Source: Escherichia virus KFS-EC
Sequence record: MH560358
Reading direction: 5' to 3' (one strand)
DNA length: 64,000 nucleotides
The notes beneath the pieces were generated by a model. It was not told the origin of the DNA and did no database searches. It saw only the letters and a list, made by a program, of their open reading frames with translations. Below are positions 10,867 to 47,790 of this stretch, in pieces. Within the stretch, counting starts at the first letter, position 1, and every line of letters starts with the position of its first letter. The position numbers were made by a program, and so were the translations under genes.

Positions 10867-12690
10867 TTATGATTGCATCCAAATTTTGCGTTGATCTGCA
10901 TCTTCACTATAGAGCAAATCGAATAGCTCTTTATAGTTTTCCGGCAACGTGATGATCTCCATGACAGGATCGTTGATCACGCGATGATAGTCTGATTCTG
11001 TGAGCGATGCTAAACCTTTGATATATCGAATGTTGTAACCTTTGATATTATCTCGGTCGTTCTCGAAATCTTCTAGGTCATAATACCATCGAACATCATC
11101 ACCTTTCTTTGGTTCCGCAATGATAATAGGTGTTTTGATAAACCGGATTCGTCCATCTTCGAACAATTCAGGCCAACGTGCAAAGAAAGAGATCAGACTA
11201 GGTTTAATAGACCCGATGCCGTCAGTATCAGCGTCAGTCATAATCGCAATATTTTTGTATTGCATAACTTCCAATGCATCAACACCAAATTGCAAGCCAG
11301 TGATCGCCATGATGTTAAAAATTTCGGCGTTCTTAACGATCTTTGCCTCCGGTTGTTCCCACGTTGTAAGAGTTTTGCCTCGCAACGGGAAACCGCCATG
11401 TAAATCTTGGTCACGTACAGAGATCAGATAGTTGATCGCGGAATCACCTTCCGTCAAAAACAGGGTAGTTTCTGCGTCAGTTCCAATAAGGTTAGCTTTA
11501 ACGTGTTTTGACACCTTAGCCCGTTTTGCTGCCTTTGCTGCCTTAGTCGCTGCCGCTTTATCTGCTGCCTCTTTGCGTGCCAGGACTACAGCAATAATAG
11601 GCATGATAATGTTTTCTTTCTTCGCAATGACTTTAGCCAGCTTTTTAAAATCAAGATCAATATGACGCTTGATATCACCAGTCGGGTTAGTCAAGCGTTC
11701 TTTTGTCTGTGAATCAAAACGAAGGTTAGGCAATTCACGAACAATAAGAATACAGGTCAATCCAGATTTAACCGCAGCTTTAGTAACATCAACCTTATAT
11801 TCTTTCTTGATTCGTTTTACAATCTCTTCACAAAGATCATCTGTCACATAATCAACGTGTGTTCCCCCGTTTTTGGTAAACAGACCGTTAGCAAAGGATA
11901 CTGATTTAAAACCTTCTCCCTCGACCGCCGGAACTAGGGCAAGTGAAAAGTTTTTATCTTCAATGACAAACGGATCATCATTGTATAGTTTAGCATAATC
12001 CTTGAACTTACTAACAATACGTTTACCATTAAACTTAAACGTGATCTTAGGAAATATTACGCTCAATGATTGCAGACGATCATGAACAATATCTAAAACA
12101 GAGTTGTCCATCATATAACCTTCGAAGTGGTCGAAGTCTGGACAAAATGTAACCTTCGTTCCCTTCAATTTTGATGGTTTTGATGACCATGTGACATTTT
12201 CAGCACCGTTTGTGCATTGAACGGTCATTTCTGTTTCGCCGTCACAGGTCACACCAGTAAACCAATCGCTAAAGAAATTTGATAACGACGACCCAACACC
12301 GTTCATCCCTTGCGTTAATCGATTGGTATCATCAAAGTTAGACCCTGCTTTTGTTCGTGTCCATGCGGCTACAGGTTGCGGAATCTGCGTACCCTCTGGG
12401 GTAGTAACCATATGTTGAGGAATACCGCGACCATTGTCTGTTACCGTAACAATATTGTTTTGGATATCGACGCTAATCACATTGGCAAATTCAAAGTTAG
12501 TGCGGATCGCCTCGTCTACAGAGTTGTCGATGATCTCATCAATGATTTTAACCAGTCCTGGAACATATGAAATTTTTGTCCATTTACCGAACAGGAAACG
12601 TTGATGTTCTTCGTAAGTTGTTGATCCTATATACATTCCTGCACGCTTAAGGACATGTTCACGATCAGATAAAATGCGAAACTCACTCAT
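10867..12690 (-). CDS. 39: DNA topoisomerase II large subunit (GyrB-like), uninterrupted gp39 (39+60 fused)
   Basis: 607 aa; GHKL ATPase and TOPRIM motifs (DNGRGIP, GLTEGDSA, DAD.DG); collinear with T4 gp39+gp60. Confidence 0.9.
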   Translation of the reverse strand: MSEFRILSDREHVLKRAGMYIGSTTYEEHQRFLFGKWTKISYVPGLVKIIDEIIDNSVDEAIRTNFEFANVISVDIQNNIVTVTDNGRGIPQHMVTTPEGTQIPQPVAAWTRTKAGSNFDDTNRLTQGMNGVGSSLSNFFSDWFTGVTCDGETEMTVQCTNGAENVTWSSKPSKLKGTKVTFCPDFDHFEGYMMDNSVLDIVHDRLQSLSVIFPKITFKFNGKRIVSKFKDYAKLYNDDPFVIEDKNFSLALVPAVEGEGFKSVSFANGLFTKNGGTHVDYVTDDLCEEIVKRIKKEYKVDVTKAAVKSGLTCILIVRELPNLRFDSQTKERLTNPTGDIKRHIDLDFKKLAKVIAKKENIIMPIIAVVLARKEAADKAAATKAAKAAKRAKVSKHVKANLIGTDAETTLFLTEGDSAINYLISVRDQDLHGGFPLRGKTLTTWEQPEAKIVKNAEIFNIMAITGLQFGVDALEVMQYKNIAIMTDADTDGIGSIKPSLISFFARWPELFEDGRIRFIKTPIIIAEPKKGDDVRWYYDLEDFENDRDNIKGYNIRYIKGLASLTESDYHRVINDPVMEIITLPENYKELFDLLYSEDADQRKIWMQS

Positions 12691-12789
12691 TATTAAACCT
12701 CTTCATAACATAACCATAACTTACTGCAACCGCCACAAAGACGGCTGCAACAATCATATTAAAAATTGAGTGATTGTCAAGTATATGAC

Positions 12790-12963
12790 TCATGACACGC
12801 GCACATTTTTATCATAGTACCCGCCATTAATCCCGCGCGGGGCAGTTAATCCCTGTTTGCATTCTTTACCACATTCAGGGCATTCTGCCTTTTCACGCTC
12901 GGAAATTTTGCGGATTTTCTGAAATTGACCGTGTTCTTCACAAGAATAATCGTATAATGGCAT
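12790..12963 (-). CDS. FmdB-like zinc-ribbon protein (57 aa)
   Basis: YDYSCEEHG...CPECG pattern; AAGGGGA SD. Confidence 0.5.
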   Translation of the reverse strand: MPLYDYSCEEHGQFQKIRKISEREKAECPECGKECKQGLTAPRGINGGYYDKNVRVS

Positions 12964-12964
12964 A

Positions 12965-13633
12965 TTATCCCCTTTGTTTCTTAACTGAATTTGGATCTGG
13001 ATTTTCTGGTAGGTCTTCCAGACCCATAGCATAACGTTGTGCATAGATTAGCATAAGAATATCGCGAGCGCAATCATGAATTGCATCATGTGCGATAAAA
13101 CCATCTAGCGTACCCATTGGTAACGGACACTCACACATCCCGCGATGCATCAATGTACGCTCAATGGCGGTGCGAACATCTCGGATATTCCAGAATCGCA
13201 CAGGTTCAAGGCTGAACGTCTCTCGTGTATTGTGTGCACGGCGGATCATATCAACTAGTAACGGAATATCAAACGCATTACCGCGTGACCACAATACGGA
13301 TTTAACCGGATCTACTCCTACGGCTTCATAGAATGCGTTAAAACGCGCTAAACCTTCTTTAGTTGATACTTCCGTACCATTTGTGATTAATTGCTTTCTC
13401 ATGCCTTCTGAGGCGGTATTCTTCCACCATTCAACCACACCATGATCAAACACCCTTACACCTTTCTGGGAAGGAATATCAAATTTTACCAGAAAGGAAT
13501 TGTCAACCAGTTCTTTAAATGTAGGTGGATTGTGCGGATCTTCTTTAAATCCGATTGCCGCCATATTGATAACCGCCCCATCAGGCGGATAACCTAAACT
13601 TTCAAAGTCAATCATTAAATCCACTGGAAGCAT
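12965..13633 (-). CDS. dexA: exonuclease A (3'-5' DEDD-type), DexA
   Basis: matches T4 DexA as recalled (IDFE...G, GTLDGF.AHD.IHDCA.DI); start at internal ATG with GGAGGA SD. Confidence 0.85.
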   Translation of the reverse strand: MLPVDLMIDFESLGYPPDGAVINMAAIGFKEDPHNPPTFKELVDNSFLVKFDIPSQKGVRVFDHGVVEWWKNTASEGMRKQLITNGTEVSTKEGLARFNAFYEAVGVDPVKSVLWSRGNAFDIPLLVDMIRRAHNTRETFSLEPVRFWNIRDVRTAIERTLMHRGMCECPLPMGTLDGFIAHDAIHDCARDILMLIYAQRYAMGLEDLPENPDPNSVKKQRG

Positions 13634-17149: not shown

Positions 17150-17668
17150 TTAGTAGCCGCGTTCTTGACGGGCGAAGTTTTCAGCATTTTTCAGATAGTA
17201 CAGCTTGAAGATATCCTTAGCGGTTAAACCTAAGCCCAGCATTTTAATCAGCACAAAATGCCAGATATCGATCAATTCCATCGAAATTTCGGTTTTATCG
17301 TCATCTGACAGGTCAGCAAATTTACGCGATCGTGCTTCGCCGTGGTTTTTCTTCCACACTTTAGTAATTGCGCTTGCATCTTTGCCATTTGACATGCCAC
17401 CCAGGGCAACATAAAGTTCTCGTGTCTCGTCGTCGATTGCGTCATCCCACAACTTCATCCAGTCAAGGATTTCTCCACAAGTTTCCAGCTTATCAGGATG
17501 CGGCACCCACTCAAATTTATCAGCTAGTGCGACCTGTAATCCTTTTTGCATATCTAACATTACTTGCAGCGGATCTTTGCCGCTAGTGATTGCCTCGGAA
17601 TACGCAATACCAGCTTTAGACATAGTTTCATCATTAACAAGACCAGCACAAGAATTAAATTCACTCAT
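17150..17668 (-). CDS. 56: dCTPase/dUTPase-like nucleotide pyrophosphatase (MazG-like), gp56
   Basis: MazG-type motif ELIDIWHFVL; T4 gp56 position between modA/B and 61; start at internal ATG with GAGAGG SD. Confidence 0.75.
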   Translation of the reverse strand: MSEFNSCAGLVNDETMSKAGIAYSEAITSGKDPLQVMLDMQKGLQVALADKFEWVPHPDKLETCGEILDWMKLWDDAIDDETRELYVALGGMSNGKDASAITKVWKKNHGEARSRKFADLSDDDKTEISMELIDIWHFVLIKMLGLGLTAKDIFKLYYLKNAENFARQERGY

Positions 17669-17678
17669 AATAAACCTC

Positions 17679-18242
17679 TCAAATAACATTAAACACTGCA
17701 AATTCACCGTGATACTTATACGCATAGTCATTATATACTATTGCGGCGTCTATTTCTAGGTCAAATTGTCCTATATAGACTTTATTTCCTTCATTGTCCC
17801 TTATCTGGGCGACCCATTTACCCGAACGACTATTATAATGCACTCCTTTAAAATTGCTAGTTTTAGTTTGGTTATTTCTTCTCATATTTTGGGTATTCTG
17901 TTTTTGTGTCGCCTCTCTTAAGTTTGGAGGGTCGTTGTTTTCTGGATTCCCGTCAATATGGTCAATGACAGGTGGGCAATACCCATGCTCTAAGAAGAAT
18001 ACTATTCTATGCACAAGCTCAAAATATTGTTTTCCTTCAAAAGAAAACGAGACTTTTAGGTGTCCGGCTGTGACTTTAGATACCTTTACTATATCACCAA
18101 CCTTATAAAACTGGCCTTCTTTCGTCGTTCGGCTTGCTTTGCTGTTTGTTTTATGAATCAATATACCACTTTCGTGTCTATATCTTCGACGTATTTCATC
18201 CTTTAGTTCATCGCTCCATTCTTTGGCTTTCCTTACCCTCAC
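17679..18242 (-). CDS. freestanding HNH homing endonuclease with C-terminal AP2-like DNA-binding domain
   Basis: HNH motif HRIVFFLEHGYCPPVIDHIDGNPENNDPPNLREATQKQN; AP2-like FKGVHYNSRSGKWVAQIRDNEGNKVYIGQF; GTG start with GAGGG SD; inserted between 61 and 56. Confidence 0.75.
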   Translation of the reverse strand: MRVRKAKEWSDELKDEIRRRYRHESGILIHKTNSKASRTTKEGQFYKVGDIVKVSKVTAGHLKVSFSFEGKQYFELVHRIVFFLEHGYCPPVIDHIDGNPENNDPPNLREATQKQNTQNMRRNNQTKTSNFKGVHYNSRSGKWVAQIRDNEGNKVYIGQFDLEIDAAIVYNDYAYKYHGEFAVFNVI

Positions 18243-22328: not shown

Positions 22329-22642
22329 ACGTAGCCCCCAACTACACGCATAACAAAGGTCTTGAGTTTATACCAGAAAGTTTCTTTTTTCAACTTTTCT
22401 TCTGCTTCTTTGATCTGCGCGGTTAACGCCTTAATGACGTGTGGATATACCACATCACGATCTGACGGCGTGGAGTAGTCGACCACAATACCTTTAGTGT
22501 CTGGATCGTATTCAACATTATGAATATAGACAATATGATGTTCTCCCTCTTCATCAACAATTATCAGTTCCTGAATAACTGTCTTCATTGCTTCTTGAAT
22601 CAAGCTGTGTGCTTCTTCTAAACTTGTTGGTTTCTTATCCAT
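22325..22642 (-). CDS. 40: gp40-like protein (head vertex assembly chaperone position)
   Basis: position between uvsX and 41, size 105 aa, ATGA coupling to 41. Confidence 0.5.
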   Translation of the reverse strand: MDKKPTSLEEAHSLIQEAMKTVIQELIIVDEEGEHHIVYIHNVEYDPDTKGIVVDYSTPSDRDVVYPHVIKALTAQIKEAEEKLKKETFWYKLKTFVMRVVGGYV

Positions 22643-22683
22643 AATATAATCCTCTCAGTCAAAATATCATTTTACTACTTTAA

Positions 22684-23433
22684 TTATTCTATGTCAACAA
22701 ATTTCCAATTTGGAAAGTCTGGACTCATACAACGACGCCGAACGGTTCCGCGCTCGTTTCCTAGTACCTTAGATACTTCCGATACAGATTTATAAATCAC
22801 ACCATCAACAAATACAGCCTTTCGGTCTTTCCTGTTTTGGTTTTTGCTCTTTTCTCTTCTGGCTTCTACGTTATCCGAATCATTCCATTGTCTCTTTGCT
22901 GTCTCTCTGGAAGATATTGCCTTTTGTTCTTTAACAATATCTTTAACGAGTTGTTCTTGTCCTGTTATCTTCGCCCACACATTAACAGACTGGATAGCAT
23001 TAGCCTCACTCATTCCCCAGCGTTTGCCGGATATATTCTTACGACGCACGCGTAGAAATTCGTTAAAGACTTCTTCGCATTGGTGCATATAATCACGAAA
23101 TCCATATTTCTTAGCCCATGCCTCTTTAATTGCATCAGACATATTTTCGGCAATACGTCTACGCATCCATGCATACTCCTTATTATTGCGACCGTGACTG
23201 GTCATGCACATCATACGCGAAGCCATAATAAGACCCACATGTTTAGGATACATTTTAGCTAAAAGTAGATGTGCTGTAAAGTGTTCCTCTGGAGTCAATG
23301 GAACGAGATTTTCGTGGTCATCGGTTCCACCCATACAACGTGGTTTAACGTGATGGATCTCTACATATCCGGTCGGCTTCTCGCGGGTTCTTGCTCGTTC
23401 AATCAATTTTTCGTAATGTGCTTTGTAGTTCAT
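22684..23433 (-). CDS. freestanding HNH homing endonuclease
   Basis: HNH motif EIHHVKPRCMGGTDDHENLVPLTPEEH; basic C-terminal DNA-binding region; start at internal ATG with GGAGGA SD right after uvsX terminator. Confidence 0.7.
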   Translation of the reverse strand: MNYKAHYEKLIERARTREKPTGYVEIHHVKPRCMGGTDDHENLVPLTPEEHFTAHLLLAKMYPKHVGLIMASRMMCMTSHGRNNKEYAWMRRRIAENMSDAIKEAWAKKYGFRDYMHQCEEVFNEFLRVRRKNISGKRWGMSEANAIQSVNVWAKITGQEQLVKDIVKEQKAISSRETAKRQWNDSDNVEARREKSKNQNRKDRKAVFVDGVIYKSVSEVSKVLGNERGTVRRRCMSPDFPNWKFVDIE

Positions 23434-23451
23434 GTGATCCTCCATATGAAA

Positions 23452-23470
23452 AAGGGGCATAACGCCCCTT
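23452..23470 (-). terminator. rho-independent terminator after uvsX
   Basis: AAGGGGC-loop-GCCCCTT stem followed by U4. Confidence 0.55.
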
Positions 23471-23484
23471 AACTGTCACTGATA

Positions 23485-24555
23485 TTATGCTAACATATCT
23501 TCGATTTCTTTGTCAACTGCTTCGTCGCTGATAATCTGGCCTAACTGATAATGATCGTTGATTGCTTTCTGGAAGTGCTCATTGGTCAGTAGAGGTTTCC
23601 AGAACTCCACACTGTCAGTGTCTTTTGCACGCACCTTGCGGTCTTCAACTTCCATTTCTCCGGTCTCCTCGTTAAGAATAGCGCGAGAATACCAGCCATT
23701 TGATGGTTTAACTACCCAACCCAACTCCACCGCAAGATCCAGCAATCCAGAATAAGGATCGATGCCACCACTAAACGTTACGCTAATCGGGAACTTTGAT
23801 CCCTCTCTAACCGTTCGTGATTTCTCGGCTTTCAGAATAAAGTCATAACCCGTAACCTCGGTTCCTTCTTTCTGCTGGCGACGCCCAATGATGAAAATTT
23901 CATTGGAAGAGTAAACGCCACCAGTACCGCCACCCATGATATCTTTCGGGTAAAGATCCATTGAGCTATAAACGTGGTTAATCGCAATGCACGGAATATC
24001 ATTCATGGTCAGATACGGCGTAATCATACGGAACAAGCCTTTAAGTGCTTTAGCTCTCGTCATATCCTGCGCCGATTTCTCATTAATCGCGTCTTCAACT
24101 TCTTTTTTACTTGCCAAGTTACCGATTGAGTCAATAAAGATGATCACTTTATCTTCACGGGTAATTTGCTCAAGCTGGTTCATGATCTCAAATTTAAGTT
24201 CTTCGATGTTCTTGATTGGAACGTGCACCACTCGATCAGGATCTACACCCATAGATGACAGATACGCGGAAGTAATGCCAAATTCTGAATCAAAGAACAA
24301 ACAAGCCGCATCTGGATTCTGTTTCATGTATGCACTAACACAAGTTAATCCCATGTTTGATTTAAAGTGCTTAGACGGACCAGCAAAGAAAATCAGACCA
24401 GATTGAAAGCCTTTTTTAAGATCACCAGAAAACGCAATATTCAGCATCGGGTTCTTAGTGCGAGTATTTGTTTTTTCGTTAAAGAAGCTGGATTTAGACA
24501 GTACCGCAGTAGTTTTCAGGGTAGAGTTCTTTTTCAGTTTTTCCAGTACAGACAT
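23485..24555 (-). CDS. uvsX: UvsX recombinase (RecA-like)
   Basis: RecA-fold P-loop (GPSKHFKS) and synteny with 40/41/43; 356 aa. Confidence 0.85.
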   Translation of the reverse strand: MSVLEKLKKNSTLKTTAVLSKSSFFNEKTNTRTKNPMLNIAFSGDLKKGFQSGLIFFAGPSKHFKSNMGLTCVSAYMKQNPDAACLFFDSEFGITSAYLSSMGVDPDRVVHVPIKNIEELKFEIMNQLEQITREDKVIIFIDSIGNLASKKEVEDAINEKSAQDMTRAKALKGLFRMITPYLTMNDIPCIAINHVYSSMDLYPKDIMGGGTGGVYSSNEIFIIGRRQQKEGTEVTGYDFILKAEKSRTVREGSKFPISVTFSGGIDPYSGLLDLAVELGWVVKPSNGWYSRAILNEETGEMEVEDRKVRAKDTDSVEFWKPLLTNEHFQKAINDHYQLGQIISDEAVDKEIEDMLA

Positions 24556-24566
24556 TATTAATACCT

Positions 24567-24755
24567 CTATTCAGTTAATCCGTAATACTTTAATTGCTTC
24601 ATTGTTATTCGATCTTTGTAGTGCTCTTGAATTAACTTTTTCATCACATCAACATCGATCGTCACAAATACTTCGTTGCTGTGATTTCCGTGAACTTTCT
24701 TGAAATGCTCTATGCCTTCCTCACGTTCACGTTTAATCTTTTCAATGTCTCTCAT
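24567..24755 (-). CDS. hypothetical small protein (62 aa)
   Basis: internal ATG; promoter and 5'-UTR hairpin upstream. Confidence 0.4.
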   Translation of the reverse strand: MRDIEKIKREREEGIEHFKKVHGNHSNEVFVTIDVDVMKKLIQEHYKDRITMKQLKYYGLTE

Positions 24756-24799
24756 AATATATTTCTCACATTGGCGGGTATCGTAACCCAACACCCGCC

Positions 24800-24827
24800 A
24801 TTATACACACTTTATCTTAAATGTCAA
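24800..24827 (-). promoter_or_regulatory. early promoter (TTGACA-16-TATAAT) followed by 5'-UTR stem-loop GGCGGGT..ACCCGCC (24773-24799)
   Basis: -35 at 24822-24827 overlapping the 3' end of gene 43. Confidence 0.5.
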
Positions 24828-27495
24828 ACAGGTCCGTAAGCGATGCCACCTTTTCATATTGCAGCTTTGCAGCCGTGGTAATGTTCTCCAGTGGTTTGAC
24901 GAAAGTCTTATTAAACAACAAAGGCCAGTCCAACCACTTCAACACCTCTGATTCAATTTCTGGAGGAATACGAGTACCAGACAACCAACCAAAACAGATT
25001 TCTCCAAACGGATTTCGATCTTTAAGCGGTACAATCATAACCTTCTCGCCTTCACGAATCGGATCTAGTCCGAATTTTCGAGCATTACGATTATAACACA
25101 ATACACTCTTAACCGCATACGGACAACCCTTAATCGGATACCCGTTTGAATCGCTGTATTTCTGTAGGTTGTTTGCAGATGATACCGCAGCAACATCAAG
25201 ATAGTCAAGTTTTCTAAATTCTTGCTCAAAAATACCGTAGTATTCCTGCAATGACTCTTCACCTTCCTGCAACATACGGCGAATACATTCTTTCAGTGAT
25301 TTCTGACATGCTTTAGGGGTGGAGCTACGTTGCGTTTCCAAGCCCATGATTTTTAGCTTAGGTTCAGCAAAGCGCGTTCCTTCCATATCCCAAACATTAA
25401 GAGCATAACGCTTTTTGCCAGTCCAGAATCCACCGATACCCGCAGATTTCAACGGAGGACCAGCAATTGCCTCACGGTCCATAAACATCAAGTGCTCATA
25501 GTTATTCATGTACTCGCATAACTCGCGATATCCCTTGTCGATAATAGGTTCCATCCGATGTTTACCGAAATTATCAAGGAAGTCAACAAGTTTTTCGGTA
25601 TCGTCGAAACGATCTTCCCCGCCAACCTTATCAACAACATTGTTAACCAGCACATAAACGGAGTCAGTATCACAATAACGAACATATGCAAAATCGGTTG
25701 TTCCGCAAAGCTCGTTTAAGTATTCGTTAATCTTACGCTCAATCCACTGAATTGCAAGCTGACCAAACAAGGTGATCGCACTAGCGTTACGGAGATCATA
25801 AAAACGGAATTTAGGATTCCCCAACGCACCATAAAGGGAGTTGATCAAAACTTTTCGAGAAAGCTGGTTTGTATTGCACAAGATCGACTCGTCTTTACAT
25901 TCTTCCAGCAATTTCTCTAAGGCATCTTTACTTAATTCAGAAAGCATCGATTTAAACGCTTCATCAAAGTCGTGACGCACTTCAACGCTATAGCTAATGG
26001 TTCCCCCATAAACATGATTTTCATCGTGTAGAATCGCTTTACAGAGTTCAGCATTGCGATCACATGCCAGCATCATATTTTTGTACTGCTTGCGCTGGTC
26101 GAATACCTTTTTAATCTCAATCGGTACGATACCATGAATATCTTTTCGATACATCCACCCGTTAGGCGAGCAAGAATACTCATCGCTCGGACGCGGGGCA
26201 GTTTTATTGATATACTCGTGCATCGGTGCAGCATCAAAAGATCCAGCGATTGTTTCCGGCGAAATGTTAACCTGACGGATGATTGATGGATACAGACTTG
26301 TTAAGTCAAAGCTCATCATCCAGCGATAAGCATTAGGTACAGGTTCTTTTACAAAAGCACCTGGATAAGTCTGCTTAGGCTGTATCTTGTTCTCCGGTAC
26401 TACTTTACCCTCAGCTTTCAGAGATCCGAAAATAATAGCATCCCATACTTTCATCGGGTTATAAACATGGTTAAATTTAATCTTTGCATAGAAACATAGG
26501 CTATACACCAGATCGATAAATCCGCGCTTTTTATCAATCGCCAGCACACGATCAACGTCGCCGATGTTATAATCGATGTAAAGTTGATGGTTGTCATCAC
26601 GCAATTTCTTTAACGGACCGTCATAATCAACCTTACCGATTCCTGTCTCATATTCAGCAACATAATCTAATGCATATGTTGGTTGAGTCGTAAAGCTAAA
26701 TTTCTTGTACAGGTCAATATAATCAAGGCTTTCGATCCCCATGATCGTAAATGCTTCACGCTCGTTGCCAAAATCATCCTGTGAGATTCGGGATTTAATC
26801 TTACCGCACGGGCTTAGACGGGTAGCGGTTCTACTTCCGAACTTATTACTGATACGCTTAATGATATATGGAATATCGAATGTTTCTGTGTTCCAGCCAG
26901 TGAAACCAACTGGTCGGTTTTCCTCAAAGAATCGGATGTATTCTAACAGCAATTCATCTTCTGTATCATAGACATTATAAACAACGCGCTCTACAATATC
27001 TGGACGAAGAATGGATTTGCTTGCTTCCCAAGATTCACCGTTTTTTCCTTTCAAGTCAAATACAAAGAAACGATCATGTACGGAATCATAATGCGTAATT
27101 GCATCGATAGGATATTTCGCTTCTTCTGGTTTAGGAAATTCCGGTGCAGTGACCTCAATATCAACCCAGGATACACGGATTTTATTTCGGTCATATCGAA
27201 TCTCACCTTTATATGTATCGGACAGATAGGAGATGATAAAATCATCCATCCCTAGTGCCTCCTGCCCCATTTCTCCCATCTTTTTACGCCATTTGTTGGC
27301 CTCGTTCATAGATGGGAATTTTTTAGCAATGCAAGGCTTGCCATAGATATCTTTATAATTCGTAACCATACCAGGCGCGGCATGATGAAATAAAGTTGGC
27401 GTATATTCAACGTAACGCTCTTGTTCTTGTCCAGCATCATCAATATAACGCTCGTAGATCTTATCACCTACTCGCTCACATGACAGAAAATACAT
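24817..27495 (-). CDS. 43: DNA polymerase gp43 (family B)
   Basis: collinear with T4 gp43 as recalled from N-terminus (ERYID, KFPSM, EALGMDDF, DIEVT) through polymerase motifs (YGDTDS); start at ATG with AAGGAG SD. Confidence 0.92.
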   Translation of the reverse strand: MYFLSCERVGDKIYERYIDDAGQEQERYVEYTPTLFHHAAPGMVTNYKDIYGKPCIAKKFPSMNEANKWRKKMGEMGQEALGMDDFIISYLSDTYKGEIRYDRNKIRVSWVDIEVTAPEFPKPEEAKYPIDAITHYDSVHDRFFVFDLKGKNGESWEASKSILRPDIVERVVYNVYDTEDELLLEYIRFFEENRPVGFTGWNTETFDIPYIIKRISNKFGSRTATRLSPCGKIKSRISQDDFGNEREAFTIMGIESLDYIDLYKKFSFTTQPTYALDYVAEYETGIGKVDYDGPLKKLRDDNHQLYIDYNIGDVDRVLAIDKKRGFIDLVYSLCFYAKIKFNHVYNPMKVWDAIIFGSLKAEGKVVPENKIQPKQTYPGAFVKEPVPNAYRWMMSFDLTSLYPSIIRQVNISPETIAGSFDAAPMHEYINKTAPRPSDEYSCSPNGWMYRKDIHGIVPIEIKKVFDQRKQYKNMMLACDRNAELCKAILHDENHVYGGTISYSVEVRHDFDEAFKSMLSELSKDALEKLLEECKDESILCNTNQLSRKVLINSLYGALGNPKFRFYDLRNASAITLFGQLAIQWIERKINEYLNELCGTTDFAYVRYCDTDSVYVLVNNVVDKVGGEDRFDDTEKLVDFLDNFGKHRMEPIIDKGYRELCEYMNNYEHLMFMDREAIAGPPLKSAGIGGFWTGKKRYALNVWDMEGTRFAEPKLKIMGLETQRSSTPKACQKSLKECIRRMLQEGEESLQEYYGIFEQEFRKLDYLDVAAVSSANNLQKYSDSNGYPIKGCPYAVKSVLCYNRNARKFGLDPIREGEKVMIVPLKDRNPFGEICFGWLSGTRIPPEIESEVLKWLDWPLLFNKTFVKPLENITTAAKLQYEKVASLTDLFDI

Positions 27496-27577
27496 AATAT
27501 AAACTCCTTCACTTACGAAAGACACTCATTATAGGGGAATCGACCTAGTTTGTCAATACCCCTATCCCATCAGTATC

Positions 27578-27940
27578 TTATCGCCCGATTTGATATTTCT
27601 CTATCAGTGTCCATTCTTCTTTCTGTTTGAAAGACAGTACACGGAAATTATTAACTTCGGTCGTTTCAAAATCACTATCAATCAGGGTACACAGATTCCA
27701 CTGCGCCAGAAGTTTTGCAATGTTATTGCGGCGTAATTCATCTTCCCACGTCATTTTAACACTACGACCATCTAATTTCAACAACTCCTTGAAATGAACG
27801 ATGTAATAGCGCCCCTTCTTCTGGAGAATATGACAAGACTGATACAGTGTCTTGTCTCGATTGTTGGCAATGCCGCAGCGGGTTAAAGTCTCCTTAATTT
27901 TAAGGAAGTTTTCAGGACTAATCAAATTAATTTCAATCAT
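27578..27940 (-). CDS. regA: RegA translational repressor
   Basis: very high identity to T4 RegA as recalled (MIEI.L..PE.FLK.KETLTR.GIANN.DK.LYQSCHILQKKG.YYIVHFKE). Confidence 0.92.
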   Translation of the reverse strand: MIEINLISPENFLKIKETLTRCGIANNRDKTLYQSCHILQKKGRYYIVHFKELLKLDGRSVKMTWEDELRRNNIAKLLAQWNLCTLIDSDFETTEVNNFRVLSFKQKEEWTLIEKYQIGR

Positions 27941-27941
27941 T

Positions 27942-28520
27942 TTACCACCTTTCTATAATCTTTTTAAGTCGTTTCCTTTCTGTCTGATTCTTAGTAACAC
28001 CCGCCAAAAGTTCATCGGTCGCATACGGTTTAATGTGCTTCAATAACTTGTCCATATATCCCTTTTCATTAGCCAAATCGAGATAAAACCGGGCGTCATC
28101 CATATTTACACAATATGCTTTCGCCACTGCCATTAAAACCAATTTTTGGTCCAATTCTTCTGTTAGTTTAGCCCATTTACCGTATCGTTTCCCCTTAGAA
28201 ATACTCTGTAAGAGATAATCAAAATGCATTTGATCTGGGAGGCCATGACCGATTAAATTCATCACATACGCGCTATATAGGCAATCTGCGTGCTGGGAAA
28301 GAGCGGTGTTAATCCATCTCTGGTTATATGCAGAATTGTTTCCCACATTAACGCGCTGTTTATCTAAGGTGATATGATCCATCAGAGCAAATAATGCATT
28401 GTCGGTTTTCTCGGTGAATGTGTCAGCTAATTCAGACACCTTTTCCCAATCACGAGAGCGCCATGCAATTTCATGCTCGTTTAATTGTGTATCATCTTCA
28501 CCGAAAAATTGACCTAACAT
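27942..28520 (-). CDS. 62: clamp-loader small subunit gp62
   Basis: position between regA and 44; TAATG coupling with 44 stop; 192 aa. Confidence 0.8.
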   Translation of the reverse strand: MLGQFFGEDDTQLNEHEIAWRSRDWEKVSELADTFTEKTDNALFALMDHITLDKQRVNVGNNSAYNQRWINTALSQHADCLYSAYVMNLIGHGLPDQMHFDYLLQSISKGKRYGKWAKLTEELDQKLVLMAVAKAYCVNMDDARFYLDLANEKGYMDKLLKHIKPYATDELLAGVTKNQTERKRLKKIIERW

Positions 28521-34373: not shown

Positions 34374-35399
34374 CTAACTTTTTGCGTTATTTACTTCGGC
34401 TAAAAGTTCATCAGAAATACGCTTGACCGCCGCAAGTTCTTCCGGTTCTAGGTTTTGTTCTTCCAGATATTCATAGACCATCTGAATAGTGCTTTTAACT
34501 TCAATAACACCTGTTTCCTGTGATGCGCTACTCTCCAGTTTATGGACCACTTTTAGCTTGTGTACAACGGCCTCTAACGCGCTTTCTAACTTAGTTAATC
34601 CATTATCAGCGACCGTTGCGATAAGACGCACACTAAGCCCTTTAAATCGTTCTACATCGATTTTATCGTCTGACGGGTAAGTGATACGCACATGATAAGT
34701 TTTGTCATTCTGGATAAACTCTTTTTTGTGTGTATCGGTATCGAATACCCAAAAACCACGCGGATCGTTTTCGTCACCCGCCGTTAGTGTGTATGGTGTA
34801 CCAATATACGTTACGTTACCGCCATCACTAATAGTATGAAAATGACCAGAAAACACTTCACGGTATTTCTTGAGGAAGTCCGCGCTATAACCTTCGGATT
34901 TTAGCCCTTTATAGAAATAGTAACCGGACAATTCCCAATGGCCTACACAATATTCGCTGAATGAGTTTTGAATAAACTCTAAAATCTCTGATTTATTGTC
35001 ATCACAAAACCACGGGAACAGATCAAATGATACACCATCAAAGGTAACTGTTTCAGGTTTATCAATGACCTTAATGCAATCATACTGGCTTAACACTTCA
35101 CGCGGTGCGTTAGGCTGGATCTTGTTTCGTTTAAACATATCATGATTCCCGACCGTGGTATAACAAGTAATACCAGCCTCTTCCAGTAACGGGATGACCT
35201 TAGTACGGTTAAATTTCATGGTTTCATGGGTAATTGCTTTTCGGCAATCAAACCAATCCCCTGTTTGAATCCATGTCTTAATATTATGCTCTTTGGAGTA
35301 TTCAACCGCTTTCTTGATGGTATCAAGAATATACTCATGCACCCACGGATCATCGCCACCGATACCAGTATGCAGATCACCTAAAAGCAAAATTTTCAT
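34374..35399 (-). CDS. 47: recombination nuclease subunit gp47 (Mre11-like)
   Basis: collinear with T4 gp47 as recalled (GD.H.G, TWIQ.GD.FD.RKAITH.TM.F, GNHD, GHWEL.G.YFYKG.KS.G, GHFHT). Confidence 0.92.
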   Translation of the reverse strand: MKILLLGDLHTGIGGDDPWVHEYILDTIKKAVEYSKEHNIKTWIQTGDWFDCRKAITHETMKFNRTKVIPLLEEAGITCYTTVGNHDMFKRNKIQPNAPREVLSQYDCIKVIDKPETVTFDGVSFDLFPWFCDDNKSEILEFIQNSFSEYCVGHWELSGYYFYKGLKSEGYSADFLKKYREVFSGHFHTISDGGNVTYIGTPYTLTAGDENDPRGFWVFDTDTHKKEFIQNDKTYHVRITYPSDDKIDVERFKGLSVRLIATVADNGLTKLESALEAVVHKLKVVHKLESSASQETGVIEVKSTIQMVYEYLEEQNLEPEELAAVKRISDELLAEVNNAKS

Positions 35400-35489
35400 A
35401 GTCTCTTCCTCTCTTCGTTTTCGATGCTCTCACTATATCACAGAAAAATAAAAAGGGAAACCCTTTTCAGAGTCTCCCTTATAAAGCCA

Positions 35490-35777
35490 TTACAGCATAC
35501 TTAATACCGTTTGCCGTGTACTAATCCACATAGCAGAAAGCAGTTCTGGCGTGTGTGGCTGTTTGTAGATATCACGTAATTTTCCGATAGCGTAGATATA
35601 CGCATCACGGTTATCATCGATGATAGCTTGTTCAGCCCACCGCTTAAGGCGTGCAATCTCTCGCGAGTTCTTACGCAAGATCTTTTCCGCTTTCTTAGCG
35701 GCTTTAGCCTCTAGTTCTGCTTGTACTTTGTCTACTTCATTCACCGCAATCTGGTCATGCTGTTCATCGTAAGTCAT
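35490..35777 (-). CDS. hypothetical protein (95 aa)
   Basis: ATG with AAGGA SD. Confidence 0.5.
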   Translation of the reverse strand: MTYDEQHDQIAVNEVDKVQAELEAKAAKKAEKILRKNSREIARLKRWAEQAIIDDNRDAYIYAIGKLRDIYKQPHTPELLSAMWISTRQTVLSML

Positions 35778-36013
35778 GTTATTTTTCCTTCTGGGATATA
35801 GTCGATGATTAAAGAAAATTCATCTTCTGATACATTATAGCTATGTGAGATTGTACCCGTCAAGACCTCAAGATCCGGTGATTTGATATTGCACGGATCG
35901 ATAATCACCGGAACGCCGCAATCTCTCAAAAATAATTTGGCGAAATACGGCACGAGGTCAGTTTCAAACTCTGCTTCTTCCAGCAAACGGGAAATGTTAA
36001 TTTTCAATCTCAT
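35774..36013 (-). CDS. hypothetical protein (79 aa)
   Basis: overlaps 3' end of gene 55; weak SD. Confidence 0.4.
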
Positions 36014-36530
36014 AAAATTGGTCCAGGCTAGGCAATTCCTCGGTCAATACATCTTCAACCTTTGGCGCTTTCGGTTTATTGACCGATTCCTCGTAGTTGT
36101 TGATTTTATCGTAAATGTCCTGTATGAATGCCTCATCAGCAATCTGGCACATATCAGCGTCGCGTTCGTCATATACATGATGCACAAAATATTTGTATTT
36201 TGCGGCTGTCGCTGTTCTCTCTTTTTTAATGCGCTGTACAAAAGCATTAAAGCACGCTTGCGTGATGTAAGCATGAGGATTTTTATACTTTGTCTCGTCA
36301 AAATTAATCAAACCCTTGACCGCCGCTTCGATTCCGTCGTCGATCATTTCTTCGCGCCATGTTTGACTATAACCAGAAAAGTTAAAACGACGTGATAGAT
36401 TTTTAGAGATTTGCATAATTGCTAGGCCGATTTGATCGCTCATTGGAACTTGCCGACCTTCTGCTGCAATTTGTTGTTTCCAACGGCAAATTTCTTCGTA
36501 AAGCTCTTTATTGTTTACATAATCAGACAC
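35997..36530 (-). CDS. 55: late-transcription sigma factor gp55
   Basis: matches T4 gp55 as recalled (YVNNKEL, GLAIM.I...[52 protein letters not shown]); GTG start with GAGGG SD. Confidence 0.9.
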
Positions 36531-36570: not shown

Positions 36571-38040
36571 CTATTCCCCATTGCCATTATACTTTCTTTG
36601 CTTAGTTATCCACACTCTAACCATCTCTACTGATTCACCGTCAGACGGATCAAGAGTTTTTCCCTTTTTCTTCATGCGGTACTTAAATCCGTTAAATCTT
36701 GCATTCTCTTGCTCGTTAAAATCGAACATCTTTTTAAATGATTTTCGCCCTTTACGCTCACCACATTCTAGCGGAATCATTCGGTCTGTTATTACATTGG
36801 CATTAGGTAGAAACGTTTTTAGATAATCTACCAACGCCCAATCAGGAACATATAGATTAACATTCTCCTTGCTCTCGTTGTCTCTCAGGTTACAACGCAA
36901 ACATAATTGAAATGCTGGTTCCAGATAATCAGACACATGACGCGCTTTCAAAAACTCATTTGTCGGGAGATCACAACTATTAGCAAGACCTTTTAAAATA
37001 TCAATCTCCCATCGTTGAGGGTTAAAGCTGAACATCACAGCAACATTTTTATGATGAATGTAAGAGTTAAGACCATAAGACCCGTAAGGTATCCGCTCGC
37101 CAATACCATTTGTGCACGCTTCACGGTCCCGATTCACGGTATAAATGAAGTCATCACCACATTCATTTTTAACCATATCAACAAGACGTTCAAAGGTATT
37201 GTTTGTTTCTGACTGGTGACGCGACCATCGTTCGGAGTCCGTCATAAGGATGATGTTAACTCTATCTGTATTTTTATACTCTTTGAAATATAGTCTGGAT
37301 TCTAGCGCACTCGGAACAAAATCGCAATTTGCATAGTATCGTAGATACTTCCCGCTATATGTATCAAAGAGATTTGCACATGCTATCGTAACCTTTTTAA
37401 AGTCTCCCCACGTACCGTGTTTGTTATCGTTCAAGAAAACAATTTTCGACCCATTCTTCCGGTGTCCTTCGTTATGTTTTACCATAACGTTGATTTTCTT
37501 CTCTAATAACGCCTCATAAAGCCCTCTAAGAGAAGAATCGATCATATCAGTACCATCCTTTGCACTTTCTATCTTTTCTTTGATAGCGGCCTTCTCAGAG
37601 TCTTTTAGAACTAAGTTCTGTAGGCATTCCGATTCGTCGGCGATTGGTTCGCAATGCTTCGTGATAAGTTCAAGATTAGACTTAAACGGATACTCATTAA
37701 ATTCAACCAGTTGAGGAACTTCATCAATGTAAAGAGCATATTCACCAAACATTTTTGAACGTTCCATATTAGATAACGCTGTATGTGTAATGAATATCAC
37801 ATCAGCACCGTCTTTAACTGATTGCATTATCGACGCTTGCACTGTCTTAAGGCTTCTTAGTCTGGTGCTATCAATCAAGACAGCACGACCGCCCATTCTT
37901 TTAAACTTATTGTAAGATTGTTCACTTAAAACACGAGATGGCGAAGCAATAACCGCTTTTTCTTTTGTCTCTAGGACGTGGGAAAGTATAGCATCAGTTT
38001 TCCCCGCCGCTGGCAATGCGATTAATGTTTCAATCTTCAT
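36571..38040 (-). CDS. uncharacterised P-loop NTPase (489 aa), helicase-like Walker A/B
   Basis: Walker A ALPAAGKTD near N-terminus and Walker B LYIDEV about 95 aa later; no match to a T4 protein I can recall; occupies the alpha-gt locus between 55 and nrdH. Confidence 0.6.
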   Translation of the reverse strand: MKIETLIALPAAGKTDAILSHVLETKEKAVIASPSRVLSEQSYNKFKRMGGRAVLIDSTRLRSLKTVQASIMQSVKDGADVIFITHTALSNMERSKMFGEYALYIDEVPQLVEFNEYPFKSNLELITKHCEPIADESECLQNLVLKDSEKAAIKEKIESAKDGTDMIDSSLRGLYEALLEKKINVMVKHNEGHRKNGSKIVFLNDNKHGTWGDFKKVTIACANLFDTYSGKYLRYYANCDFVPSALESRLYFKEYKNTDRVNIILMTDSERWSRHQSETNNTFERLVDMVKNECGDDFIYTVNRDREACTNGIGERIPYGSYGLNSYIHHKNVAVMFSFNPQRWEIDILKGLANSCDLPTNEFLKARHVSDYLEPAFQLCLRCNLRDNESKENVNLYVPDWALVDYLKTFLPNANVITDRMIPLECGERKGRKSFKKMFDFNEQENARFNGFKYRMKKKGKTLDPSDGESVEMVRVWITKQRKYNGNGE

Positions 38041-38507: not shown

Positions 38508-38766
38508 AAATCGCCCTCAGTTCTTTATAGCCTCCAATGTGCTCGTTGTCAATGAATATCTGGGGGTATACAAACCGGAGGCTCTTTGAGTTTAGCCTCC
38601 CCGCCAGTTCTTCAATCATATCACGGTCGGGAATAATGTCAACCCCGACCTGCTTGAATACTGGTTTAAGTGTATACGGAATACCCAGATCATCCAGTAG
38701 CTTCATTGCACTAATACAACCATAACAATGATAAGCCTCTTTCGGTATACCGTATATCTCGATCAT
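38497..38766 (-). CDS. nrdH: glutaredoxin-like protein (NrdH position)
   Basis: redox motif CYGC in thioredoxin-fold context (IEIYG...CYGC...P.IFID...IGGY..L). Confidence 0.7.
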   Translation of the reverse strand: MIEIYGIPKEAYHCYGCISAMKLLDDLGIPYTLKPVFKQVGVDIIPDRDMIEELAGRLNSKSLRFVYPQIFIDNEHIGGYKELRAIYDY

Positions 38767-39239
38767 TTCTCAGCCTTTAATCTTTCTAGTTCTTCTTCCA
38801 GTTCCTTGATCCGTTGGTCACGTTCAAAGTCACGCTGCAACTTAATGGCGAATACTCGTTTAAACTGATTGTAATCATCGATTTTAAACACTTCTTCTTC
38901 GCCATAGCGACGCACAGAAACTTCGTAGTTATTGAAGAATTGTTGCATCATTGCTTCGGATGATAGCTCTGCTGATACCACTTTAAAATATTGATCTTCT
39001 GTAGGCGAAAACCAATTACAAGCATAAAGATAAACCTTTTCATTGTCTGGACACTGGTAAGCCTTACCATCGATTTCAATCACAGAAACATATTCAGGTA
39101 TACTAGATGAATCAATAGCTAAGACTTTAAACGCACGGTCCCCGATAAACTCGGAGATCACACGATTCGCATCACTGGTTGCAAATGCTTTACGCGCTTG
39201 TTCGTTTTTCCACTGATAGGTCATACCAACAACAAACAT
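38763..39239 (-). CDS. repeat-domain family protein (1 copy of W..GKTY.WKD-type domain + coiled coil)
   Basis: shares domain with 39241-40065, 40078-40542 and 44948-46126; internal ATG with GAGG SD. Confidence 0.55.
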   Translation of the reverse strand: MFVVGMTYQWKNEQARKAFATSDANRVISEFIGDRAFKVLAIDSSSIPEYVSVIEIDGKAYQCPDNEKVYLYACNWFSPTEDQYFKVVSAELSSEAMMQQFFNNYEVSVRRYGEEEVFKIDDYNQFKRVFAIKLQRDFERDQRIKELEEELERLKAEK

Positions 39240-39240
39240 A

Positions 39241-40065: not shown

Positions 40066-40077
40066 AATATATTCCCC

Positions 40078-40542
40078 TTAACCGATTTTATCAAGTTCGT
40101 TTAATGCTTTCTCTGCTTCCTGTATAGCTTGCACCCTTTCCGGCATTTTGTCAAGAAAATCTTTCAACTCTTCAAAACTGGAGATATGACGCAAGGCGTT
40201 AGCACCGATAGCCGCATGTGATTTGCATTCAAAGCGGATTTTATAATTATCCATCGCCAACTTGAGAAGATCAATTAATTTAGATTCTTCTGGAATAATA
40301 ATTTCTTCAAATCTGCTACGGTCATGATCCAGAAACCAACAAGATAGACCTACATCGGTTGAACTCATATAAGTTCCATCATGAAGATAAACAGACCGCA
40401 CGTATCCTTTTTTCGCATCAACCGACGCAACTTTAAACGGTAATCTCAGATATTTCAAATAATCAACATCATACCATTTAAAAAATTGGTTTGCATCTTT
40501 TACATCTTTCCACGCATAGGTCTTACCAGCTTCCCATTCCAT
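40078..40542 (-). CDS. repeat-domain family protein (1 copy)
   Basis: MEWEAGKTYAWKD motif; coiled-coil C-terminus; track start GTG. Confidence 0.55.
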   Translation of the reverse strand: MEWEAGKTYAWKDVKDANQFFKWYDVDYLKYLRLPFKVASVDAKKGYVRSVYLHDGTYMSSTDVGLSCWFLDHDRSRFEEIIIPEESKLIDLLKLAMDNYKIRFECKSHAAIGANALRHISSFEELKDFLDKMPERVQAIQEAEKALNELDKIG

Positions 40543-40552
40543 AATAATCACC

Positions 40553-41198: not shown

Positions 41199-41240
41199 AT
41201 TTGATTCTCCTGTAAAGTTGTATCTCGTCTTGATGTGTGT

Positions 41241-46977: not shown

Positions 46978-47790
46978 TCAATCTACGTTAGTTACATAAA
47001 CTTCTTGCGTATCAGAAGACTTACCACCTGAACGATCTAGGCAATAGGTCTTATTCAACAGGACGCAGTTTAAATCATTCCGCTTGATAAAGTCAAGGAG
47101 ATGATCATTTACCTTTCCCTTATGATGTGTGACATTACTGATACCAAACCGAAAACCACGCTCCATAATAGATTCTACCCACTGATAGAATTTAATCTCT
47201 TCCTCGTCACTCCAGAACTTATTATATTCCGCAGAAGTGATAAGGTACGGCGGGTCCAAATAAACGAAATCACCTGGCAAGATCTCGATCTCGTCATAGC
47301 GACCAGACGTAAAACTGATTCGACCGTCTTTGTTTTCTTCCTTAAAATTCAGGACACGCTCTACCGCGTTTTCGTTAAAAGTCCGGCGACCAAAATTAGC
47401 ATTAAATTCTCCCTTCCTGTTATGGCGGTTAATGTTGCTAAAACTGTGCTGAATCAGAACAAACAGAGATAGCGGATCTGGATTCTCGTTATACTTCTTG
47501 CGGAATGCCATATAAGAATCTTTATCATCACGAGACAAACCATTTTCGGCAATGATACGCTTGATCGTAGAAACCGGATCAGGACACTCGTCAATCTCTT
47601 TGTACGCGTCAATTAAGCGGTGATCATAGTCATTAGCCAGAACATCCCCTTCGACGTACAGAGACACGCTCAAGCCGCCACAAAAGGCATCAACAAAGCG
47701 GTTATAGTGCTTAGGGAAATACTTACTAACACTAGGCAATAACTTTTCCTTATTGCCAGTATAGGGAATTAAACCTAATGCTTTCTTCAT
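46978..47790 (-). CDS. dam: DNA adenine methyltransferase Dam
   Basis: motifs FVD.FCGGLSVSL and DFVYLDPPYLIT..(E/A)YNKFWS(D/E)EEE as in T4 Dam. Confidence 0.88.
   Translation of the reverse strand: MKKALGLIPYTGNKEKLLPSVSKYFPKHYNRFVDAFCGGLSVSLYVEGDVLANDYDHRLIDAYKEIDECPDPVSTIKRIIAENGLSRDDKDSYMAFRKKYNENPDPLSLFVLIQHSFSNINRHNRKGEFNANFGRRTFNENAVERVLNFKEENKDGRISFTSGRYDEIEILPGDFVYLDPPYLITSAEYNKFWSDEEEIKFYQWVESIMERGFRFGISNVTHHKGKVNDHLLDFIKRNDLNCVLLNKTYCLDRSGGKSSDTQEVYVTNVD

Follow-up and report, generated by a model that had tools for sequence, protein, structure and literature searches.

Short uvsX-43 and 47-55 intervals in an RB49-type Krischvirus and the probable state of its cytosines

T4 carries its modification genes, together with homing endonucleases, at two sites, one between uvsX and gene 43 and one between genes 47 and 55. 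In the 64,000-nucleotide stretch of Escherichia virus KFS-EC analysed here (sequence record MH560358; hereafter the window), both intervals are short. This raises the question of whether the phage lacks the T-even hydroxymethylcytosine system, and in what state its cytosines would then be packaged.

Relatives of the window and content of the two intervals

The window covers a portion of the early and replication genes in a Krischvirus genome. A megablast search with positions 22600-28000 matched 64 phage records. The top match is Escherichia phage vB_ESM-pEJ01 (98.6% identity over the full length of 5.4 kb), followed by many RB49-like phages at ~95%, and the database classification of the matching phages is Straboviridae, genus Krischvirus. 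Collinearity with pEJ01 and RB49 extends over its whole length, at 87-99% identity and with a few cassette-sized indels. By identity (95-98.8% across the window) and collinearity, it thus comes from an RB49-type Krischvirus, a 'pseudo-T-even' coliphage. Its nucleotide identity to this group (RB49, phi1, JSE, pEJ01, TB34, SAP) is 95-99%, and it shares with Krischvirus the gene order 56-61-...-41-40-uvsX-ORF25-43-regA-62-44-45...46-47-a-gt.4-a-gt.5-55. The differences are cassette-level polymorphisms only. Between 56 and 61, the window has an HNH-AP2 homing endonuclease, which is present in 6 of 57 Krischvirus genomes. An HNH endonuclease between 40 and uvsX is present in the window and pEJ01 but not in RB49, whereas the one found between 47 and a-gt.4 in RB49 is missing from the window, as are a few ORFans.

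The uvsX-43 interval (24556-24816) measures 261 bp and contains one 62-aa ORF, a sigma-70 promoter and a stem-loop, and all genes around it in the window are on the minus strand (Table 1). Its T4 counterpart, in contrast, is 3,635 bp long, with segA, b-gt, 42, imm and imm.1 inside it. The initial annotation had described this interval as free of beta-gt, 42 and imm, with just the 62-aa ORF and a promoter; the coordinates hold, and tblastn gives no significant match to these T4 genes. The stem-loop is an additional element that the annotation did not list. In the RB49 annotation, RB49p025 (a 62-aa hypothetical protein plus a 'hypothetical early promoter') likewise stands alone between uvsX and 43.

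The 47-55 interval measures 597 bp in the window and 3,152 bp in T4, where it additionally carries 47.1, a-gt, mobB, a-gt.2 and a-gt.3. It had been described as lacking alpha-gt and holding two small ORFs, which is borne out, and the two ORFs are homologues of T4 a-gt.4 and a-gt.5. Their presence means that the window keeps what lies downstream of the alpha-gt block in T4. The a-gt.5 homologue overlaps the end of gene 55 by 17 nt, and a-gt.4 and a-gt.5 are the sole conserved genes between 47 and 55 in the RB49 annotation. In all 57 Krischvirus records of the phage collection, both intervals are either unbroken or interrupted by a homing-endonuclease insert only.

Table 1. Features of the window discussed in the text, with coordinates and strand
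Feature	Coordinates	Strand	Basis or remark
gp56 homologue (dCTPase-dUTPase family, all-alpha NTP pyrophosphohydrolase)	17153..17668	-	51% identity to T4 gp56, full length, E 2e-61
uvsX (RecA-like recombinase), 356 aa	23485..24555	-	59% identity to T4 UvsX, E 5e-148; same position as RB49p024
62-aa ORF, RB49p025 equivalent	24567..24755 (including stop)	-	conserved small protein with IEHFKK-HGNHS-EV motif
Stem-loop GGCGGGUGUUGG...CGAUACCCGCC	24772..24799	-	directly 3' of the -10 box; 12-bp, G/C-rich
Early sigma-70 promoter TTGACA-N16-TATAAT	24827-24800	-	12/12 consensus; -35 box overlaps the final codons of gene 43
Gene 43, DNA polymerase	24817..27525	-	55% identity to T4 gp43, E 0
Gene 47 (SbcD-like recombination nuclease subunit)	34374..35399	-	57% identity to T4 gp47, E 2e-117
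Terminator-like hairpin followed by a T run (intrinsic-type)	35453..35480	-	between a-gt.4 and gene 47
a-gt.4 homologue, 95 aa, DUF2654	35490..35777	-	tblastn with T4 a-gt.4, E 1e-12; PF10849, 80.2 bits; RB49 annotation a-gt.4
a-gt.5 homologue, 79 aa	35774..36013	-	tblastn with T4 a-gt.5, E 6e-8; DUF5491 weak; RB49 annotation a-gt.5
Gene 55 (late sigma factor)	35997..36530	-	61% identity to T4 gp55, E 9e-69
Dam-family N6-adenine DNA methyltransferase	46978..47790	-	46% identity to T4 Dam, E 6e-65

Promoter, stem-loop and small ORF between uvsX and 43

The promoter and stem-loop between uvsX and 43 are, judged by their sequence, a known RB49-type PeSL (promoter-early stem-loop) cassette. In RB49 and phi1, PeSLs combine a near-perfect TTGACA-N16/17-TATAAT promoter, a stem-loop of a G-run and a C-run, a Shine-Dalgarno sequence and the ATG of a small ORFan, and the stem-loop can take up five positions, that downstream of the -10 box being one (Arbiol et al., 2010; Comeau et al., 2014; PMC2839356, PMC4122927). 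Each of these elements is found here, with promoter, stem-loop, Shine-Dalgarno sequence and small-ORF ATG in an intergenic setting. The window copy thus shares with the PeSLs of RB49 and phi1 the promoter type, the adjacent stem-loop, the small ORFan and the intergenic position, and it belongs to the published subclass in which the stem-loop follows the -10 box. However, it lies inside the conserved replication module (43/uvsX), whereas the published PeSLs lie in a hyperplastic region. Also unlike the published PeSLs, it has a -35 box that overlaps the 3' end of gene 43.

The promoter (24800-24827) is identical in RB49 and pEJ01, and the early promoter that the RB49 annotation lists as hypothetical is this one. 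The window contains nine perfect TTGACA-N16-TATAAT sites where chance would give 0.09, and all nine are on the minus (gene) strand. The minimum free energy of the 86-nt stem-loop region is -26.7 kcal/mol (z = -4.1 relative to shuffled sequences), and the stem-loop is kept in RB49 and pEJ01 with one change, which falls in the loop.

Reporter assays on other PeSL copies revealed strong promoter activity and terminator-like attenuation (PMC2839356, PMC4122927). Both the reporter assays and the inverse PCR for mini-circle recombination in PMC2839356 concern copies other than the one between uvsX and 43, and we therefore infer the role of this copy from theirs. The predicted PeSL most likely restarts early transcription into the 62-aa ORF and uvsX, and its stem-loop, as a predicted attenuator, most likely damps read-through from gene 43.

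The product of the 62-aa ORF is a conserved small protein. It matches phrog_12120 over its full length (E 3e-41), has no match in Pfam or NCBIfam, and is present in 57 Krischvirus genomes at 95-100% identity. Homologues at 43-51% identity occur in unrelated Salmonella and Klebsiella phages of ~45-49 kb, and the invariant residues include R11, I15, F18, H22, G23, V29, R49 and Y58. A word search of 5.8 billion proteins returned near-identical copies only, and an exhaustive HMMER search of 1.84 billion clustered proteins returned eight stand-alone representatives of the family, all of 56-77 aa. An AF2 model built on a nine-sequence alignment predicts three helices with moderate confidence (pLDDT 78.7, pTM 0.35), and a Foldseek comparison of this model with the PDB gave no fold match (best E 7.9). 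In Klebsiella phage KpTDp1, the 62-aa domain forms the in-frame N-terminus of a DUF2800/PD-(D/E)XK nuclease; this fusion may be real or may reflect the choice of start codon in the annotation. Together with the proximity of uvsX, it gives a weak hint that the small protein may act in recombination or DNA processing.

Search for hydroxymethylcytosine genes

Thirty-one T4 proteins were compared by tblastn (E <= 10) with the window and with the complete genomes of pEJ01 (166,422 bp) and RB49. The controls uvsX, 43, 47, 55, 49 and nrdC gave clear matches (E 1e-11 to 0), and so did 56, dam, 1, cd, denA and frd in the window and pEJ01/RB49 taken together. In the 64-kb window, gp42, a-gt, b-gt and imm have no significant match (best E 0.2-3; gp42 0.96). 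Across the window, pEJ01 and RB49, the best E value for a-gt, b-gt, imm, imm.1, alc, denB, arn, ipI, ndd, motA and asiA is no better than 0.03. With T4 a-gt and b-gt, the glucosyltransferase queries used, it is 0.2-3 in these three sequences. The lack of a significant match to alc, denB, arn and ipI in the same three sequences agrees with Table 4 of PMC2993671. The initial annotation had concluded that the hydroxymethylcytosine glucosylation genes are missing from their canonical loci in the window, and the interval contents and tblastn agree with it. The wider search for 42, a-gt and b-gt that it proposed found none in complete pEJ01 or RB49, the closest relatives.

With T4 gp42 as the query, td alone was matched in pEJ01 and RB49, at paralogue level (E 0.006, 23% identity). 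Within the ThyA superfamily, the residue at the specificity position is Asn in thymidylate synthase and Asp in dCMP hydroxymethylase. The Td of pEJ01 and RB49 keeps the catalytic Cys and has the thymidylate synthase-type Asn of the LPFN(V/I)ASY motif, here LPFNVASY, where T4 gp42 has Asp. Against TIGR03284, the thymidylate synthase equivalog (cut-off 108), the Td of the relatives reaches 284 bits. The idea that this td, which has an insertion of ~125 aa, is a cryptic hydroxymethylase is rejected on account of its residue type and its equivalog score.

Protein domain searches were also negative. A Pfam scan of 20 window proteins and 10 non-T4 pEJ01 proteins gave no glycosyltransferase, second ThyA-like or TET/JBP domain. 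The scans of these 30 proteins did return homing endonucleases, a DEAD-like helicase, a gp38 adhesin, methyltransferase-like proteins, a CYTH protein and a small GmrSD_N-domain protein. PHROG profiles place the window proteins of 392, 274, 164, 158 and 154 aa in one paralogous GoF-like repeat family, and the 392-aa and 274-aa proteins have no sequence match in the PDB. Orphan glycosyltransferases among the unassigned window proteins are disfavoured, the largest of these being the GoF-like paralogues.

The initial annotation had also named a MazG-like gp56 and a Dam methylase, and both are present. The gp56 homologue aligns with T4 gp56 over 172 of 171 residues and matches Pfam dUTPase_2 and, weakly, PRA-PH; a sequence search against solved structures returned noise only. 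The Dam-family enzyme scores 150.2 bits against TIGR00571 (cut-off 114.85) and 105 bits against MethyltransfD12 (PF02086; cut-off 22). It adjoins nrdC and gene 49 in the window, whereas T4 dam adjoins gene 56.

Set beside the glucosyl-hydroxymethylcytosine system of T4 and other Tequatrovirus phages, the window keeps the surroundings and lacks the core. The flanking uvsX, 43, 47 and 55 products are 55-61% identical in protein sequence, the window encodes homologues of gp56, Dam, a-gt.4 and a-gt.5, and the genomes of the relatives encode those of gp1, cd and denA. In contrast, the defining gp42, a-gt and b-gt, along with alc and denB, which act against cytosine DNA, are absent from the window and the relatives.

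State of the cytosines in virion DNA

The absence of cytosine-modification genes is a documented, genus-wide property of Krischvirus and was already known. In Table 4 of Petrov et al. (2010), RB49 is not among the types of T4 relatives with gene 42 (PMC2993671). According to the same source, denB and alc have the 'same distribution as gene 42' across T4 relatives, a-gt is restricted to T-even phages and b-gt to T4 and CC31, and 56 and denA occur in nearly all T4 relatives, with gene 42 or not. The 2026 Durham Collection paper (PMC13390438) agrees with Petrov et al. on this absence and on the same syntenic loci. Yaung et al. (2014) used RB49, which lacks the hydroxymethylase and beta-glucosyltransferase, as the unmodified control; RB49 DNA was cleaved by HpaII and NheI, whereas the DNA of T4 and of T4 gt was not (PMC4041780). 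RB49 is a generalized transducer of plasmids that lacks the hydroxymethylcytosine genes and endonuclease IV (denB) and keeps homologues of DenA and the dCTPase-dUTPase (PMC8056088, PMC12115623). In the Durham paper, DNA of the Krischvirus TB34 consists of canonical nucleosides by HPLC-MS (PMC13390438).

The phage is thus very likely an RB49-type phage that lacks the T-even hydroxymethylcytosine system and packages ordinary cytosine DNA. The window and its Krischvirus relatives alike are without 42, a-gt, b-gt, alc and denB. The direct data on canonical cytosine concern RB49 (digests, PMC4041780) and TB34 (HPLC-MS, PMC13390438), and, by analogy with these relatives, the same very probably holds for this isolate. 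The lineage lacks 42, a-gt and b-gt together with companions that are useful only with modified DNA (alc, denB, arn, ipI), and the phage would replicate with ordinary dCTP and package canonical cytosine DNA. Its sole DNA modification would probably be N6-methyladenine at GATC, made by the phage Dam. The two intervals would represent minimal versions of two plastic insertion sites, with a single PeSL cassette and the 62-aa ORFan between uvsX and 43, and a-gt.4 and a-gt.5 followed by the terminator-like hairpin between 47 and 55. The products of 56, cd, td, frd and 1 (cd, td, frd and gene 1 being shown in the full genomes of the relatives only) would serve to keep uracil out of DNA and to supply dTMP, not to replace dCTP. 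They most plausibly exclude dUTP and feed dUMP into dTMP synthesis, and the ~60% A+T composition of the genome is the setting for this proposed role.

Four points count against this reading, and two of them, a report of modified DNA in the Krischvirus SAP and the window proteins of 140-200 aa without family assignment, are taken up below. If the retained full-length gp56 homologue were an active dCTPase, it would fit poorly with dC in the phage DNA. The window also covers 64 kb of a ~165-kb genome, and we infer the content of the remainder from relatives that are 95-99% identical; since these differ by cassette-sized indels, a strain-specific insertion could lie outside the window.

The initial annotation had left room both for unmodified cytosine and for a different hypermodification encoded elsewhere. 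The former is in line with relatives that lack the genes and with the canonical virion DNA found experimentally in RB49 and TB34, and the latter finds no support in sequence. Hypermodification of the cytosines (T6-like hydroxymethylcytosine, gentiobiosyl-hydroxymethylcytosine or another form) by genes outside the window or beyond recognition is very improbable. T4 a-gt and b-gt are themselves sequence orphans, which makes orphan glycosyltransferases conceivable, and several window proteins of 140-200 aa are without family assignment. However, the window, pEJ01 and RB49 contain no gp42-like or glycosyltransferase gene, the larger orphans (392, 274, 164, 158 and 154 aa) are GoF-like paralogues and not glycosyltransferase-like singletons, and the DNA of RB49 and TB34 is unmodified by experiment. 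The main observation in favour of hypermodification is the report on the Krischvirus SAP, whose DNA reportedly contained 5-hmdC, alpha-glucosyl-methyl-dC and alpha-gentiobiosyl-methyl-dC, 'pathway unknown', and which was sensitive to the type IV enzyme BrxU while being 99.96% identical to TB34 (PMC13390438). Against it, the modification profile of SAP equals that of seven T6-like Tequatrovirus phages in the same collection, and BrxU cleaved SAP DNA most weakly (PMC13390438). That some Krischviruses, possibly including this one, substitute 5-hydroxymethylcytosine and gentiobiosyl-hydroxymethylcytosine for cytosine through a pathway that shares no detectable homology with gp42 or known DNA glycosyltransferases, as reported for SAP, is extremely unlikely. 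If it were true, the empty 42 and glucosyltransferase loci would hide an entirely new route to a classical hypermodification, with the gp56 homologue as its dCTP-clearing step.

The sequence differences between SAP and TB34 look like assembly artefacts, technical and not biological, and offer no genetic basis for hypermodification. Table S5 of the Durham paper lists mostly 1-nt indels, 14 substitutions, all C>T or G>A, and a few complex variants (PMC13390438). The substitutions fall at Pro or Gly codons, and the 1-nt indels would frameshift pol, uvsX, 45 (clamp), 47, topoisomerase and nrdB of TB34, in which the uvsX annotation is split into two CDSs. Within the first 50 kb of the SAP genome, each of the eight substitutions affects the central base of CCSGG, which is CCWGG in TB34, and eight of 11 indels fall within A/T homopolymers five or six bases long. 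RB49 carries the SAP allele at seven of these eight substitution sites, and pEJ01 likewise at seven. An explanation of the substitutions as Dcm CCWGG sites in SAP is rejected, given that it is SAP that has CCSGG and TB34 that has CCWGG. The sequence of SAP comes from Illumina reads, which would place any artefact on the TB34 side. SAP and TB34 are probably of essentially the same genotype, in which case a phage-encoded pathway in SAP would lack a genetic basis. A mixed lysate or DNA preparation is the simpler explanation of the SAP result; this interpretation is ours and not that of the authors of the Durham paper.

Two further proposals leave ordinary cytosine in place. One concerns history only and predicts the same present phenotype: an ancestor possessed the modification genes and lost them by deletion, so that the small intervals are deletion scars. 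This is rather unlikely. The retention beside gene 55 of a-gt.4 and a-gt.5, which lie just downstream of the alpha-gt block in T4, speaks for such a loss, as do the retained T4 partners of gp42 (gp56, denA, cd and gp1), the patchy distribution of gene 42 across distant T4 relatives (PMC2993671, Table 4) and the PeSL-mediated excision of cassettes documented in RB49 and phi1 (PMC2839356). However, tblastn reveals no trace of 42, b-gt, imm or a-gt (best E 0.2-3), the interval content is identical across 57 genomes, and 56, denA, cd and 1 are 'quasi-core' genes of auxiliary metabolism that nearly all T4 relatives possess, with or without gene 42 (PMC2993671).

The other proposal, compatible with ordinary cytosine DNA and with about an even chance of being right, is that the phage modifies its DNA by methylation only, through Dam-made m6A at GATC and possibly through homologues of RB49p143 and RB49p189 outside the window. 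It draws on the score of the Dam-family enzyme above the TIGR00571 cut-off, on a protein with an MTS/Eco57I-like methyltransferase domain at positions 12598-13437 of pEJ01, and on the RB49 annotation, which names RB49p143 and RB49p189 as DNA methyltransferases. Yet the MTS-domain protein resembles rRNA or protein methyltransferases as much as DNA methylases, and the RB49p189 homologue has no methyltransferase match in Pfam or NCBIfam. According to its authors, HPLC-MS of TB34 gave no detectable modified nucleosides, a statement whose scope possibly excludes m6dA (PMC13390438).

Scientifically, very likely possession of ordinary cytosine DNA adds nothing beyond published work on RB49-type phages, and its use is practical, for annotators and phage-therapy users. 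The DNA of this phage is expected to be cut by ordinary restriction enzymes, to be targetable by CRISPR and restriction-modification, and not to be a substrate for type IV (modification-dependent) systems. Because denB, alc and ndd, which destroy or silence cytosine DNA, are missing, the phage is likely to be capable of generalized transduction, like RB49.

Homing endonucleases and the domain of the 62-aa ORF

The table lists two HNH endonuclease genes of the window. The HNH-AP2 gene is a 588 bp insertion in the interval between gene 56 and the primase gene 61, a position that is occupied by dam in T4. Six of 57 Krischvirus genomes, TB34 and SAP among them, carry it at >99% identity; RB49 and pEJ01 lack it. 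The HNH-AP2 genes that RB49 and pEJ01 carry elsewhere, at different sites, share 39-49% identity with it. RB49 lacks the HNH endonuclease between gene 40 and uvsX, which the window shares with pEJ01. Over the 111 residues at its N-terminus, this protein shows 52% identity to T4 MobB.

The domain of the 62-aa ORF between uvsX and gene 43 also occurs within a larger protein, a nuclease of Klebsiella phage KpTDp1, whose in-frame N-terminal ~50 residues match it (46% identity, E 5e-14). Outside KpTDp1, the domain invariably stands alone, as a protein of 56-77 aa.

Coordinates of the features described in this part (L004, a stretch of the pEJ01 genome; L014, a stretch of Klebsiella phage KpTDp1)
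Feature	Length (aa)	Coordinates	Strand	Remarks
LprI-domain protein	252	1594-2352	-	weak domain match
HNH_3 + AP2 free-standing homing endonuclease	187	17679-18242	-	domain matches
HNH endonuclease, I-TevI-type DNA-binding domain	258	22684-23460	-	gene 40 / uvsX interval
RB49p044 ("hypothetical protein") counterpart	489	36571-38040	-	directly downstream of gene 55
goF-like paralogue	158	38763-39239	-	PHROG profiles
goF-like paralogue	274	39241-40065	-	PHROG profiles
goF-like paralogue	154	40078-40542	-	PHROG profiles
goF-like paralogue	164	44398-44892	-	PHROG profiles
goF-like paralogue	392	44948-46126	-	PHROG profiles
Nine perfect promoters		7894, 9852, 10836, 24800, 27528, 42420, 44924, 49383, 52354	-	TTGACA-N16-18-TATAAT
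DUF2800/PD-(D/E)XK nuclease with 62-aa ORF domain	432	L014:2468-3766		Klebsiella phage KpTDp1
GmrSD_N (DUF262) protein, RB49p187 homologue	180	pEJ01 52908-53450 (L004:2908-3450)		outside window
Krischvirus thymidylate synthase	406-410	pEJ01 73986-75206 (L004:23986-25206); RB49 136870-138102		outside window

Early promoters, goF-like paralogues, and proteins without T4 homologues

All nine perfect promoters in the whole window lie on the gene (minus) strand, against 0.09 expected from shuffles. They are the dense early-promoter (PeSL, promoter-early stem-loop) system of RB49-type phages.

Five neighbouring genes (38763-46126, minus strand) share a repeated domain (phrog_5347/622/3710) and are paralogues. 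Some of these profiles are labelled "goF mRNA metabolism modulator," and neither Pfam nor PDB sequence matches were found for any of the five proteins. They form an expanded family around nrdG/nrdD.

For two further proteins, T4 homologues were not found. The 489-aa protein has a weak N-terminal match to a DEAD/DEAH helicase domain (27.4 bits; cut-off 26) and no NCBIfam match was found. The 252-aa protein weakly matches the lysozyme inhibitor domain LprI (23.8 bits; cut-off 22).

Sequence differences between SAP and TB34

The differences in Table S5 of PMC13390438 were checked within positions 1-50000 of phage SAP (OZ034687.1). All eight substitutions checked change the central base of CCSGG in SAP to give CCWGG in TB34. 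The SAP allele matches that of RB49 at 7/8 of these sites, and likewise that of pEJ01 at 7/8. A/T homopolymer runs hold eight of the 11 indels checked, and the indels of Table S5 result in frameshifts of essential genes in TB34. From these sequence patterns, the published "differences" between the modified (SAP) and unmodified (TB34) Krischvirus look like assembly artefacts.

Genes of Krischvirus relatives outside the window

Krischvirus thymidylate synthase contains an in-frame insertion of ~125 aa between its N-terminal and catalytic parts, which accounts for its length and explains why thymidylate synthase models align to it in two stretches. Its catalytic motifs are intact.

The GmrSD_N (DUF262) domain makes up the 180-aa pEJ01 protein (73 bits). 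One small gene (pEJ01 53428-53757) separates its gene from one annotated as "DNA methyltransferase," for which Pfam and NCBIfam matches were not found. In type IV enzymes directed against glucosyl-hmC DNA, GmrSD_N forms the N-terminal domain. The pEJ01 protein is a candidate weapon that might act against co-infecting T-even phages.
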